In this document: positions 11,578 through 13,707 of the stretch, in pieces
Numbering within the stretch: the stretch's first letter is position 1
How the letters are laid out: each line of letters starts with the position of its first letter
Source of the DNA: Escherichia phage PBM-1
Length of the DNA stretch: 64,000 bases
Reading direction: 5' to 3' (one strand)
Sequence record: PV029540
The notes under the pieces: generated by a model
The model's input: only the letters and a program-made list of their open reading frames with translations
Database searches by the model: none
Told to the model about the DNA's origin: nothing
Made by a program: the position numbers and the translations under genes

Positions 11578-11653
11578 TGGTCGAGGCAGTAGGGATCGAA
11601 CCTACGACCTAGGACTTAGAAGGTCCTTGCTCTTCCTTCTGAGCTATGCCCCG
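11578..11653 (-). tRNA. tRNA-Arg (anticodon TCT)
   Basis: Manual cloverleaf: acceptor CGGGGCA/TGCCTCG, anticodon stem AGGAC/GTCCT, loop CTTCTAA, T-loop TTCGATC, encoded CCA. Confidence 0.75.
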
Positions 11654-11657
11654 TAAT

Positions 11658-11733
11658 TGGGGTGACCGATGGGAGTCGAACCCATGACTACGAGAATCAC
11701 AATCTCGAGTTCTACCAACTGAACTACGGCCAC
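11658..11733 (-). tRNA. tRNA-His (anticodon GTG)
   Basis: Manual cloverleaf: anticodon stem CGAGA/TCTCG, loop TTGTGAT, T-arm ATGGG-TTCGACT-CCCAT, encoded CCA. Confidence 0.7.
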
Positions 11734-11846
11734 ATTAATACCTACTCCAACAATCAAGATGTCTTCACACGAAATTAAGAGAAGAGTGATCAGTTCAACC
11801 CTATAATCGCGTCAAGTAGATATTAATGTGACAGTTGTCACAAATT

Positions 11847-11922
11847 TGGCGGACGTGATAGGATTCGAACCTATAACCAATCGCTTAACAGGCGATCGCT
11901 CTGCCATTGAGCTACACATCCA
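11847..11922 (-). tRNA. tRNA-Asn (anticodon GTT)
   Basis: Manual cloverleaf: anticodon stem ATCGC/GCGAT, loop CTGTTAA, T-arm ATAGG-TTCGAAT-CCTAT, encoded CCA. Confidence 0.7.
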
Positions 11923-11926
11923 AATT

Positions 11927-12012
11927 GGTGGGGAGTGATGGAGTCGAACCACCCGAGTCGCAATGACAATGGATTTACAGTCCACACCGCTACCTCTACG
12001 GGATAACTCCCC
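11927..12012 (-). tRNA. tRNA-Tyr (anticodon GTA), long variable arm
   Basis: Manual cloverleaf: acceptor GGGGAGT/ACTCCCC, anticodon loop CTGTAAA, ~86 nt. Confidence 0.7.
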
Positions 12013-12018
12013 TTAATT

Positions 12019-12093
12019 TGGTGGCCCTGGGTGGAATTGAACCACCATCTGGCGATTATGAGTCGCTTGCTTGAACCTTCCAGCTACAGGGCC
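12019..12093 (-). tRNA. tRNA-Met or Ile2 (anticodon CAT)
   Basis: Manual cloverleaf: acceptor GGCCCTG/CAGGGCC, anticodon loop CTCATAA; not initiator-like. Confidence 0.65.
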
Positions 12094-12094
12094 T

Positions 12095-12170
12095 TGGTGC
12101 TGATTGACGGAATCGAACCGCCGACCTTCTCATTACAAGTGAGTTGCTCTACCTACTGAGCTAAATCAGC
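12095..12170 (-). tRNA. tRNA-Thr (anticodon TGT)
   Basis: Manual cloverleaf: acceptor GCTGATT/AATCAGC, anticodon loop CTTGTAA. Confidence 0.7.
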
Positions 12171-12175
12171 AAAAC

Positions 12176-12265
12176 TGGCGGAGGCGATAGGATTTGAACC
12201 TATGAGTCGCCGGAGCGACTGCCGGTTTTCAAGACCGGTGCATTAAACCACTCTGCCACGCCTCC
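12176..12265 (-). tRNA. tRNA-Ser (anticodon TGA), long variable arm
   Basis: Manual cloverleaf: anticodon stem CCGGT/ACCGG, loop CTTGAAA, ~90 nt. Confidence 0.7.
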
Positions 12266-12271
12266 AAATAT

Positions 12272-12880
12272 TTATATATTGTTAATTTGATTTAGAATTC
12301 TTTTTGCTTGAGTATGACTTACGCCAATATGCTTAGCATATTTAGATAATTCGCCTCGTTTAGAAAAATCATATAATTTAGAAATTTCTATTCTTCTTTT
12401 TCTTTCATCCGCAGAAACTTTTGCTTCGTTTGCTTTTGCTATTTTACGTTTAGCTTCTTGAGAATGAGTTTTACCAGCAAAGCCATTCTTCATTAATCCA
12501 TTTGAAGACCATCCTTTTAATTTTCCGTTAGAATGTGCCTTTTTAACACCCAATGAAATTAATTCACGTTGCTGATCTGTCATAGGATAATTATTTATAT
12601 GATCCCATCCACCTTCACCACCAAGTTTTAAATTATACACATCTGATCTATTTAAAAACTCTTCTGTGACAATATTTTTCTCGGCTTCAAGCATAGATTC
12701 TTTATCATCAAAATACTCTAATATTTCTTTAGAAAAATTTTCTATACCATACTTATCTTGGGCTCTTTTTAATAATTTACCGGAACCCATATATCCATCA
12801 TCTAAATTTTCGGTAGAATGCACACCAATATAAATTTTATTATTAATTTTATTTGTTATTTTATAAAGATAAAAATGCAT
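12272..12880 (-). CDS. GIY-YIG homing endonuclease (SegB-like)
   Basis: ORF 12272-12922; GIY-YIG motif YLYKITNKINNKIYIGVHS near N-terminus if started at Met15; embedded in tRNA cluster as segB is in T4. Confidence 0.75.
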   Translation of the reverse strand: MHFYLYKITNKINNKIYIGVHSTENLDDGYMGSGKLLKRAQDKYGIENFSKEILEYFDDKESMLEAEKNIVTEEFLNRSDVYNLKLGGEGGWDHINNYPMTDQQRELISLGVKKAHSNGKLKGWSSNGLMKNGFAGKTHSQEAKRKIAKANEAKVSADERKRRIEISKLYDFSKRGELSKYAKHIGVSHTQAKRILNQINNI

Positions 12881-12995
12881 ATCAGTCCCTAATAAAGAAC
12901 TGAGCGTCTCACGACGAGTCATAAATTGGAGCGGATAATGAGAATCGAACTCACATCATCAGATTGGAAGTCTGAGGTAATGCCATTATACGATA

Positions 12996-13082
12996 TCCGC
13001 AAATTTGGTGCGAGAAGTGGGACTCGAACCCACAAGGAAATCATTCCGCAGCATTTTAAGTGCTGTGCCTTTACCAATTTGA
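12996..13082 (-). tRNA. tRNA-Leu (anticodon TAA), long variable arm
   Basis: Manual cloverleaf: acceptor GCGAGAA/TTCTCGC, anticodon stem CAGCA/TGCTG, loop CTTAAAA, T-arm GTGGG-TTCGAGT-CCCAC; lies under the spurious plus ORF 12926-13225. Confidence 0.7.
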
Positions 13083-13098
13083 CCATTCTCGCGCTATA

Positions 13099-13707
13099 TT
13101 ATTTATTACGTGAAAAAGATTGTTCTATCAGCTCTGGACACTTTCGTTCTATCCATTTTCTAGCTTTTTGTGGGCTTATACCTATTATTTTAGCAGCTTT
13201 ACTAACCCATCCAAATTTAGAATAATCAATTTTAACTAATTCTTCGTAAATTTCATCAGTTAAAATGTTTTCATTAATATTTACCAGTAAATGATATAAT
13301 TTATTATCATTAGCAATTTTAATGAATCTTTTATAGTTTCCGCCTTTACTTAAACCTAATGAAGTAATTGCAGATGATATAGTAGCCGAATTTAATAATG
13401 CGTTTAAAATTTCTTCATCACTAACATTATAACGCTTTTTATTATTTTTAATATTTTTACCAGCAAAAGTATCAGTTTGCGAATGGCAATTTGGACATAA
13501 TAATCTTAAATTTGATTTAAGATGATTTTTATTATTTCCGTCAATATGGTCTAATTGCAGAACAATATGTTTATTTTGCCATTTTGAAATTTTACAAATT
13601 GCGCACTCATATGGAAAAATATTTTCTTTTATTATTTTATCTTTCAGCTTTCCTGTACTAAAATTTGGATGTTTTCCTTCAAAAATTTCAGCTAATTTAG
13701 TATCCAT
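13099..13707 (-). CDS. HNH homing endonuclease
   Basis: ORF 13099-13731 (first codon TTG); HNH/zinc-finger signature CAICK...LQLDHIDGNNKNH...CPNCH. Confidence 0.7.
   Translation of the reverse strand: MDTKLAEIFEGKHPNFSTGKLKDKIIKENIFPYECAICKISKWQNKHIVLQLDHIDGNNKNHLKSNLRLLCPNCHSQTDTFAGKNIKNNKKRYNVSDEEILNALLNSATISSAITSLGLSKGGNYKRFIKIANDNKLYHLLVNINENILTDEIYEELVKIDYSKFGWVSKAAKIIGISPQKARKWIERKCPELIEQSFSRNK

Follow-up and report, generated by a model that had tools for sequence, protein, structure and literature searches.

How did the tRNA gene cluster of Escherichia phage PBM-1 come to differ from that of phage T4, and what part did the two homing endonuclease genes that interrupt it play in the difference? 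The cluster lies in a stretch of 64,000 nucleotides (nt) of PBM-1 DNA (sequence record PV029540), which was analysed at its full length and is referred to below as the window. The locus is the known tRNA gene region of the T-even phages (Tequatrovirus); its parts have already been deposited, and it is largely explained in print. Its present form can with good confidence be read as that of a T-even tRNA region in which two homing endonuclease cassettes have displaced the genes for tRNA-Gln and tRNA-Pro by homing-driven exchange.

Gene content and placement of the cluster

Nine tRNA genes were predicted by ARAGORN in the window, all on the minus strand between positions 11578 and 13092. The same nine were recovered with the Rfam model RF00005, all of them at or above the gathering score (59-74 bits, except for tRNA-Tyr with about 30 bits), and the sequence at the 3' end of all nine genes reads CCAA or CCAG. 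The initial annotation, which had been made from the sequence alone, had counted eight tRNA genes. All eight and their anticodons were borne out by both programs; the count was one short, as tRNA-Gly(TCC) at 12927-13000 had been overlooked, so that ARAGORN on the minus strand returned no differing anticodon and one gene more rather than fewer. The two endonuclease genes had been assigned to the correct families, GIY-YIG and HNH, as judged from Pfam and PHROG matches and from the motifs in the translations. They had been described as flanking a single tRNA gene, and flank they do, but because tRNA-Gly lies between the GIY-YIG gene and tRNA-Leu, two tRNA genes are bracketed rather than one. The features of the cluster are as follows (aa, amino acids):

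11578..11653, minus strand: tRNA-Arg(TCT) (ARAGORN, Rfam)
11658..11733, minus strand: tRNA-His(GTG), with T at -1 and C73 (ARAGORN, Rfam)
11734..11827, minus strand: structured RNA of about 94 nt, unannotated, abutting the 5' end of tRNA-His (folding, covariation)
11847..11921, minus strand: tRNA-Asn(GTT) (ARAGORN, Rfam)
11926..12012, minus strand: tRNA-Tyr(GTA), with a long variable arm (ARAGORN; Rfam 30.2 bits, barely over the gathering score)
12019..12093, minus strand: tRNA with CAT anticodon, most likely tRNA-Ile2 (ARAGORN, Rfam, likeness to E. coli tRNA-Ile)
12095..12170, minus strand: tRNA-Thr(TGT) (ARAGORN, Rfam)
12176..12265, minus strand: tRNA-Ser(TGA) (ARAGORN, Rfam)
12272..12880, minus strand: SegB-like GIY-YIG gene, 202 aa, ATG at 12880, in the tRNA-Pro slot (Pfam, PHROG, identity to T4 segB)
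12881..12926, minus strand: leader of the seg cassette, with a hairpin at 12882-12903 over a Shine-Dalgarno-like AGGGA (comparison, folding)
12927..13000, minus strand: tRNA-Gly(TCC) (ARAGORN; Rfam 63.3 bits)
13006..13092, minus strand: tRNA-Leu(TAA) (ARAGORN, Rfam)
13099..13707, minus strand: HNH homing endonuclease gene, 202 aa, ATG at 13707, in the tRNA-Gln slot (PHROG, homology to T5 hegA)
13714..13720, minus strand: tRNA-Gln remnant, the first 7 nt, TGGGAAT (alignment to Gln-bearing alleles)

The 3-kb region matched 1137 phage records, nearly all of them from T4-like coliphages and their relatives. The nearest relative of the phage backbone was UGKSEcP2 (Tequatrovirus), with 98.6% identity over window positions 1-25000. 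A BLAST comparison of window positions 9001-16500 with T4 and nine relatives, supplemented by the annotation of these genomes, placed the cluster at a conserved position between the e.x genes and trna.2-4/ipI/57B: homologues of the T4 genes trna.2-4, ipI and 57B are found upstream, rnaD, rnaC and a terminator-like hairpin downstream. Gene orders were compared in ten relatives; they are given here in the direction of transcription, with endonuclease genes in parentheses and CAT standing for the tRNA gene with this anticodon:

T4: Gln Leu Gly Pro Ser Thr Ile (segB) Arg rnaD rnaC
UGKSEcP2: Gln Leu Gly Pro Ser Thr CAT Tyr Asn His Arg, no endonuclease gene (11 tRNAs)
RB18 and AR1: Gln Leu Gly (seg) Ser Thr CAT Tyr Asn His Arg
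slur14: (HNH) Leu Gly Pro Ser Thr CAT Tyr Asn His Arg
UPWr_E4: Gln Leu Gly Pro Ser Thr CAT Tyr (seg) Arg
Window: (HNH) Leu Gly (seg) Ser Thr CAT Tyr Asn, RNA of about 94 nt, His Arg, 116-aa reading frame, rnaD rnaC
CM8: as the window, minus Tyr, Asn and His
Ec_O157kw: as the window, minus His, the RNA preceding it and the 116-aa reading frame
SH-2: Leu and Arg only, according to ARAGORN

The contiguous block seg-Gly-Leu-HNH was found in the phage collection only in CM8, Ec_O157kw and SH-2. No record of this collection covered the whole 3-kb query, the best being CM8 with 92% and Ec_O157kw with 83% coverage. The combination present in the window is a new recombinant of known parts. SH-2 (PQ642267.1, 130619-136069) carries an extremely eroded allele consisting of the HNH gene, tRNA-Leu, a seg gene of T4 length (666 bp) and tRNA-Arg; its tRNA-Gly region is still alignable although ARAGORN calls only two tRNAs there.

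Endonuclease cassettes in the tRNA-Gln and tRNA-Pro slots

The open reading frame (ORF) of the HNH gene extends over 13099-13731, and comparison with homologues points to the ATG at 13707 as the likely start. The protein matched phrog_14736 from end to end (2.5e-123) and phrog_10822 with 2.1e-29. Its Pfam score for PF01844 was 17.4 bits, under the cut-off of 21.4, and the motifs CxxC...DH...N...CxxCH are intact in the translation (CAIC...DHIDGN...N...CPNCH). A sequence search of the PDB gave no meaningful match among solved structures. The cassette begins after the first 7 nt of tRNA-Gln (8-9 nt in slur14 and Ec_O157kw) and ends 1-2 bases before tRNA-Leu. In the alignment of the junction, which was inspected base by base, the Gln-bearing alleles read TGGGAATTAGCC..., the HNH alleles TGGGAAT(C/T)AT ATT ATG. 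The body of tRNA-Gln, from about position 8 to the 3' end, is thus replaced by the HNH cassette. The gene is present in 63 phage records with 96-99% nucleotide identity, and a 131-nt probe spanning the HNH-Leu junction was covered in exactly these (63/63). The Gln-Leu junction of the empty allele was covered in 448 records, and about 519 carry this tRNA-Leu. These junction counts (63 versus 448) indicate that the HNH gene and tRNA-Gln behave as alternative alleles at one site.

The same site separates segments that differ in their relatedness to UGKSEcP2. Alignment of the window with UGKSEcP2 gave 98.8% identity over 10119-12266, that is through tRNA-Ser, and 99.4% across tRNA-Gly and tRNA-Leu (12922-13095), with breaks exactly at both cassettes. 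On the upstream side of the HNH gene identity is lower, 95.6% and then 94%. In UGKSEcP2, RB18, AR1 and CM8, a 516-bp ORF (RB32ORF135c-like) is found immediately upstream of the promoter region of the tRNA genes. The window (site 13827-13836), T4, slur14 and Ec_O157kw lack this ORF, which represents a second presence/absence polymorphism beside the HNH site. Because of the drop in identity and the difference in the 516-bp ORF, the HNH site was taken as a boundary between differently related segments. This agrees with the general finding that nuclease genes are located at exchange boundaries (PMC10448857).

The ORF of the GIY-YIG gene spans 12272-12922, with the ATG at 12880 (MHFYLYKITNK...) as the likely start by comparison with homologues. 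The protein scored 26.8 bits for PF01541 (cut-off 22.6), matched phrog_314 (2.6e-53) and reached 20.1 bits for NUMOD3, the cut-off being 20.4. Its N-terminal catalytic part of about 95 aa is near identical to that of T4 SegB (97.8% at the nucleotide level over window 12592-12866), whereas from about residue 97 the two proteins are unrelated, so that overall identity is 58%. The C-terminal half matches the type found in RB18, AR1 and KP13MC5-5; the closest protein is that of the Klebsiella phage KP13MC5-5 (Jiaodavirus), with 76% aa identity, whose gene is located between tRNA-Gly and a retained tRNA-Pro. The gene product is thus a domain chimera. The initial label "SegB-like" is therefore apt for the catalytic half, but fits neither the C-terminal half nor the position, for T4 segB, also embedded in the tRNA cluster, is inserted between Ile and Arg and not, as here, between Gly and Ser.

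Full-length copies of the RB18-type seg gene were found in 56 phage records. The Gly-Ser site is occupied by seg in RB18, AR1, CM8, Ec_O157kw and the window, and by tRNA-Pro in slur14, UGKSEcP2, UPWr_E4 and T4. The cassette, consisting of leader and ORF, lies where slur14, T4 and UGKSEcP2 have tRNA-Pro. The 45 nt preceding the seg ATG share GCTCAGTT and CTGAT with tRNA-Pro and were considered as a decayed 5' half of this gene; the idea was rejected, as the leader travels with the seg gene. The same leader precedes seg after tRNA-Tyr in UPWr_E4 and after tRNA-Gly in KP13MC5-5, where tRNA-Pro still follows downstream, and it was for this reason assigned to the mobile cassette. The leader hairpin at 12882-12903 has a minimum free energy of -14.1 kcal/mol (z -2.3); lying over the ribosome-binding AGGGA, it is reminiscent of the way in which translation of T4 segB has been proposed to be occluded (PMC2330249).

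As a separate observation, the C-terminal 30 or so aa of the GIY-YIG and HNH proteins share the helix-turn-helix-like pattern D[FY]SK.G..SK.AK.IG[VI]S...A[KR]. The two C-terminal segments matched each other in BLASTP (E 2e-4), and both matched phrog_16521. This suggests that one DNA-binding module is shared by two different nuclease domains, which is consistent with the modular construction of these enzymes.

The published properties of SegB provide the frame for the proposed course of events. The recognition sequence of T4 SegB is the T-loop motif GGTTCRANTCC, and cleavage takes place close to CCAR, where tRNA genes have their 3' ends; in crosses with T2L, inheritance of T4 segB and of the T4 tRNA region was near 100%, and T2L markers were lost (PMC2330249, 2008). 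T6 SegB cuts within tRNA genes, drives amplification of tRNA-Tyr and thereby defeats Septu (PMC13096335, 2026). In the window GGTTCRANTCC occurs 8 times versus 0.15 expected, and all occurrences fall between 10962 and 13030. In the preferred explanation the ancestral allele was free of endonuclease genes and had the eleven tRNAs Gln Leu Gly Pro Ser Thr Ile2 Tyr Asn His Arg, an order that survives in UGKSEcP2. In the window each of the two free-standing cassettes occupies the slot of one tRNA gene. Both enzymes, like T4 SegB, would cut the endonuclease-free allele of a co-infecting relative, homing activity and targets being here those predicted by analogy. Recombinational repair would then copy the endonuclease gene together with flanking markers, and the tRNA gene at the insertion point would be lost. 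The expected outcome is a mosaic of tRNA complements across near-identical phages.

Ongoing cassette exchange at the locus had been proposed in the initial annotation, and the presence/absence polymorphisms among phages more than 95% identical agree with it, but the proposal was not new, since SegB-driven exchange had been published in 2008 and 2026. The locus neatly illustrates, in a natural setting, how selfish endonuclease genes displace single tRNA genes (Gln-UUG and Pro-UGG) for often-used codons, and a near-isogenic endonuclease-free allele exists in UGKSEcP2 that could be used as homing substrate.

Alternative readings and the roles of the tRNAs

Codon usage was determined from 58 long ORFs of the window (36% GC). 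The share among the codons for the same amino acid is 29% for AGA (Arg), 23% for ATA (Ile), 44% for TTA (Leu), 36% for GGA (Gly), 31% for ACA (Thr) and 28% for TCA (Ser). These values fit a role, assigned by inference, of the tRNAs for A-ending codons in supplementing codons heavily used by the phage. Per 1000 codons there are 64 for Asn and 43.5 for Tyr, a heavy use that also fits supplementation, and 14.8 for His. The tRNAs for Tyr, Asn and His may further stand in for host tRNAs lost to tRNA-cleaving defences. The tRNA with the CAT anticodon had its best E. coli matches in genes annotated as tRNA-Ile (81.6% identity over the full length), with which it shares the 5' strand of the acceptor (GGCCCT) and the anticodon arm AGCGACTCATAATCGCC; in RB18 it is annotated as Ile. 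By this likeness it is most likely tRNA-Ile2, reading AUA after a predicted lysidine modification. T4 tRNA-Ile differs from it in the anticodon stem and the T arm. The greater similarity of the CAT tRNA to E. coli tRNA-Ile(CAT) than to T4 tRNA-Ile is a hint at separate origins of Ile2 in T4 and in this lineage.

Several observations weigh against homing-driven displacement of tRNA-Gln and tRNA-Pro. The census of 63 against 448 records consists of BLAST coverage counts, not of per-genome annotation, and was drawn from a redundant collection containing GenBank/RefSeq duplicates. Over the 100 nt upstream of the insertion, no substitution was linked to the HNH gene, and no co-conversion or target-immunity tract is visible on that side at this resolution. 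Neither enzymatic nor genetic experiments on endonucleases of these two types were found in print, and since the DNA-binding half differs from that of T4 SegB, the published specificity would not be simply transferable to the present seg variant. The tRNAs for Gln and Pro were lost although CAA accounts for 72% of Gln codons and CCA for 41% of Pro codons; either these tRNAs are of minor importance in the hosts normally infected, or carrying the endonuclease genes is costly. Loss of tRNAs for frequent codons is, on the other side, as expected of selfish insertions in a dispensable region. If both endonuclease genes were immobile now, the differences among alleles would have to come from ordinary deletion and from illegitimate or homologous recombination among tRNA genes and spacers. 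Deletion variants independent of the endonucleases do exist: Tyr, Asn and His are missing from CM8, His and the 116-aa ORF are missing from Ec_O157kw, and in SH-2 ARAGORN finds only Leu and Arg. The spacers following each CCA are alike (ATTTA, AATTT) and could supply microhomology, and the HNH score below the Pfam threshold is compatible with a gene no longer functional. Yet both reading frames are uninterrupted and retain all catalytic motifs, identity of the HNH gene is 96-99% among 63 phages that are more divergent elsewhere, which fits recent spread, the identical junction in 63/63 records fits site-specific insertion, and the catalytic half of seg is 98% identical to that of an enzyme with proven homing. 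Taken together, these points make immobility of the two genes improbable, and displacement by homing is the explanation that we prefer.

The initial reading, an unusual and novel tRNA complement for a T4-type phage, is hardly tenable. The list of T4 tRNAs on which it relied was correct according to the T4 annotation, alignment of the locus to T4 and relatives showed that its content is not identical to that of T4, and the nine tRNAs plus two endonuclease genes have no full-coverage match in the phage collection. Thus the anticodon set is indeed "non-T4" with respect to T4 itself, but it is neither unusual nor novel: T2L, RB18, AR1, slur14 and UGKSEcP2 carry Tyr and Asn, and most of them also His. 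Since the same genes occur in UGKSEcP2, RB18, AR1 and slur14, the His/Asn/Tyr set is not peculiar to the window; each single component is annotated in many GenBank phages, and the T2L complement (Gln, Leu, Gly, Pro, Ser, Met(CAU), Tyr, Asn and Arg) has been in print since 2008 (PMC2330249). As posed, the finding carries little weight, since both the variable T-even tRNA region and its homing endonucleases have been published before and can be found in annotated genomes by the hundred. A different emphasis deserves more consideration, although we hold it tentatively: the tRNAs for Tyr, Asn and His could mainly serve anti-defence by replacing host tRNAs cut by immune nucleases, and the endonuclease genes could be kept for tRNA amplification and exchange. 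Septu cleaves tRNA-Tyr, and T6 escapes it through SegB-dependent amplification of tRNA-Tyr (PMC13096335); phage tRNAs are reported to evade retron and other tRNA-targeting defences (PMC11555353, PMC10264068); the four substrates of colicin E5 include the tRNAs for Tyr, His and Asn (PMC1635277); and with only 14.8 His codons per 1000, supply would be a weak reason for keeping tRNA-His. Against this, the sequence does not separate anti-defence from supply, and the anticodon loops keep the U-G-U context recognised by E5-type nucleases. The seg gene of the window is not beside tRNA-Tyr, unlike that of T6 and UPWr_E4, and viable close relatives (CM8, Ec_O157kw and SH-2) are each without some of His, Asn and Tyr. 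The anti-defence role is in any case compatible with displacement of tRNA genes by homing, not exclusive of it.

Flanking features, tRNA-His and comparison with known systems

The cluster is bordered by the following features:

13790..13814, minus strand: middle-promoter-like sequence, TGCTTTA at 13808-13814 and TATTAT at 13790-13795 (read from the sequence)
11211..11561, minus strand: 116-aa ORF between tRNA-Arg and rnaD (phrog_3355, 5.9e-55)
about 11095..11214, minus strand: homologue of T4 rnaD (species 2 stable RNA), 93% identity to T4
about 10950..11088, minus strand: homologue of T4 rnaC (species 1 stable RNA), 93% identity to T4
10876..10899, minus strand: intrinsic-terminator-like hairpin and T run at the cluster end (10 pairs, 7 of them G-C, then TTTTT)

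The coordinates of rnaD and rnaC were mapped by hand from the alignment and are approximate to a few bases; the 93% identity spans both. Neither RNA matched an Rfam family at gathering or permissive thresholds. The rnaC homologue contains the T-arm-like sequence GGTTCGAATCC at 10962-10972. The 116-aa ORF is present in RB18, AR1, slur14 and CM8 and missing in T4 and Ec_O157kw. TGCTTTA and TATTAT, 12 nt apart, are shared by T4, RB18, AR1, CM8 and slur14, with or without the HNH gene. We take 13790-13814 to be of the MotA-box/-10 type, by its match to the T4 middle-promoter consensus. A generic sigma-70 scan was not above chance (18 matches versus 14.2 expected). In T4 the promoter of the cluster is located just upstream of the first tRNA gene, and the T4 literature quoted in the same paper describes the cluster as one precursor processed by host RNases (PMC2330249). 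From these T4 data and from the conserved promoter-like sequence upstream we infer that the cluster is one minus-strand transcription unit, running from the middle-type promoter at about 13800 to the terminator at about 10880.

The tRNA-His gene lacks an encoded G at -1, as had been noticed initially: it has T at this position in combination with C73, whereas E. coli hisR has G. The T is invariant in 14 other T4-like copies of tRNA-His, which show compensatory changes in three stems. T5 tRNA-His likewise has T at -1, and this T is included in the annotated 78-nt tRNA of T5. A sample of tRNA-His genes from IMG/VR gave 23 with G and 22 with T at -1; the pattern scan was broad and also drew non-His and host-like genes, and only genes with the GTG anticodon were counted. 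G-1 is the main identity determinant for the histidyl-tRNA synthetase HisRS (PMC9976931). Nothing specific was found in the literature on phage tRNA-His without G-1.

The gene is preceded by a structured RNA. The 113-nt spacer between tRNA-Asn and tRNA-His folds well (z -2.95), and a 14-bp closing helix joins the 11827 end of the element to the 11734 end, 11734 being position -1 of tRNA-His. All 14 pairs are kept in ten distinct T4-like copies, and three of these pairs show compensatory changes. The 3'-proximal hairpin covaries too, and the interior may differ entirely between copies. Element length across copies is about 94-107 nt, with a closing stem of 14-15 bp. The element is unannotated in RB18, AR1, slur14 and UGKSEcP2 and matched no Rfam family at gathering or permissive thresholds. 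In T5, the 106-nt RNAIII, annotated as "stable RNA with unknown functions", is located directly 5' of tRNA-His and has the same helix pairing its ends; the sequence of RNAIII is unalignable with that of the window element, and only the architecture is in common. When T5 RNAIII was added to the comparison, 11 of the 14 pairs changed on both sides, which none of 500 shuffles equalled, in a test whose helix arms had been hand-picked from folds and which is therefore biased toward structure. A literature search on T5 stable RNAs returned nothing specific. Two unrelated viral contigs of IMG/VR carry an element of 86-87 nt with a 15-bp closing stem that abuts the 5' end of tRNA-Asn (GTT). Because of this similar element 5' of tRNA-Asn, the architecture may not be specific to tRNA-His.

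It is conceivable, though we consider it doubtful, that the RNA of about 94 nt is a functional, undescribed RNA family of T4-like phages and the counterpart of T5 RNAIII, perhaps dictating an unusual maturation of tRNA-His. The closing helix together with the T at -1 could force RNase P to cut at +1, yielding tRNA-His without G-1. If so, the product would be a poor substrate of HisRS and might act as a decoy or be recognised differently. The RNA is possibly the one new item at the locus. Only from it and from the missing G-1 might a new question arise, namely how phage tRNA-His is matured and charged.

Among the known systems, the T4 cluster has the same genomic position, strand and upstream promoter region as that of the window, and is 99.4% identical in Leu and Gly, about 95% in Ser/Thr and 93% in rnaD/rnaC. 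It differs in having Gln and Pro at the sites of the two endonuclease genes, in lacking Tyr, Asn, His and the RNA preceding His, and in the location of segB between Ile and Arg. RB18 and AR1, with 10 tRNAs, come closer: the order from Leu to rnaC, the seg variant, the His/Asn/Tyr genes and the 116-aa ORF are all as in the window, with 97-97.6% identity across 10310-13095, whereas tRNA-Gln is kept and the HNH gene is absent. The HNH gene of the window is also found, at the same junction with tRNA-Leu, in slur14 (98.6% nucleotide identity), ACG-C40 (97.6%) and HY03 (97.9%); slur14, whose locus was read, differs in keeping tRNA-Pro and in having no seg gene between Gly and Ser. The relationship to T5 is more distant. 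T5 hegA (F-TflIV), by name the closest relative of the HNH protein that has been characterised, is 34.7% identical to it at the aa level over 84% of the query (E 3e-15, tblastn), which indicates distant homology, and it too adjoins tRNA genes, but its neighbour is Ile2 and not Leu.

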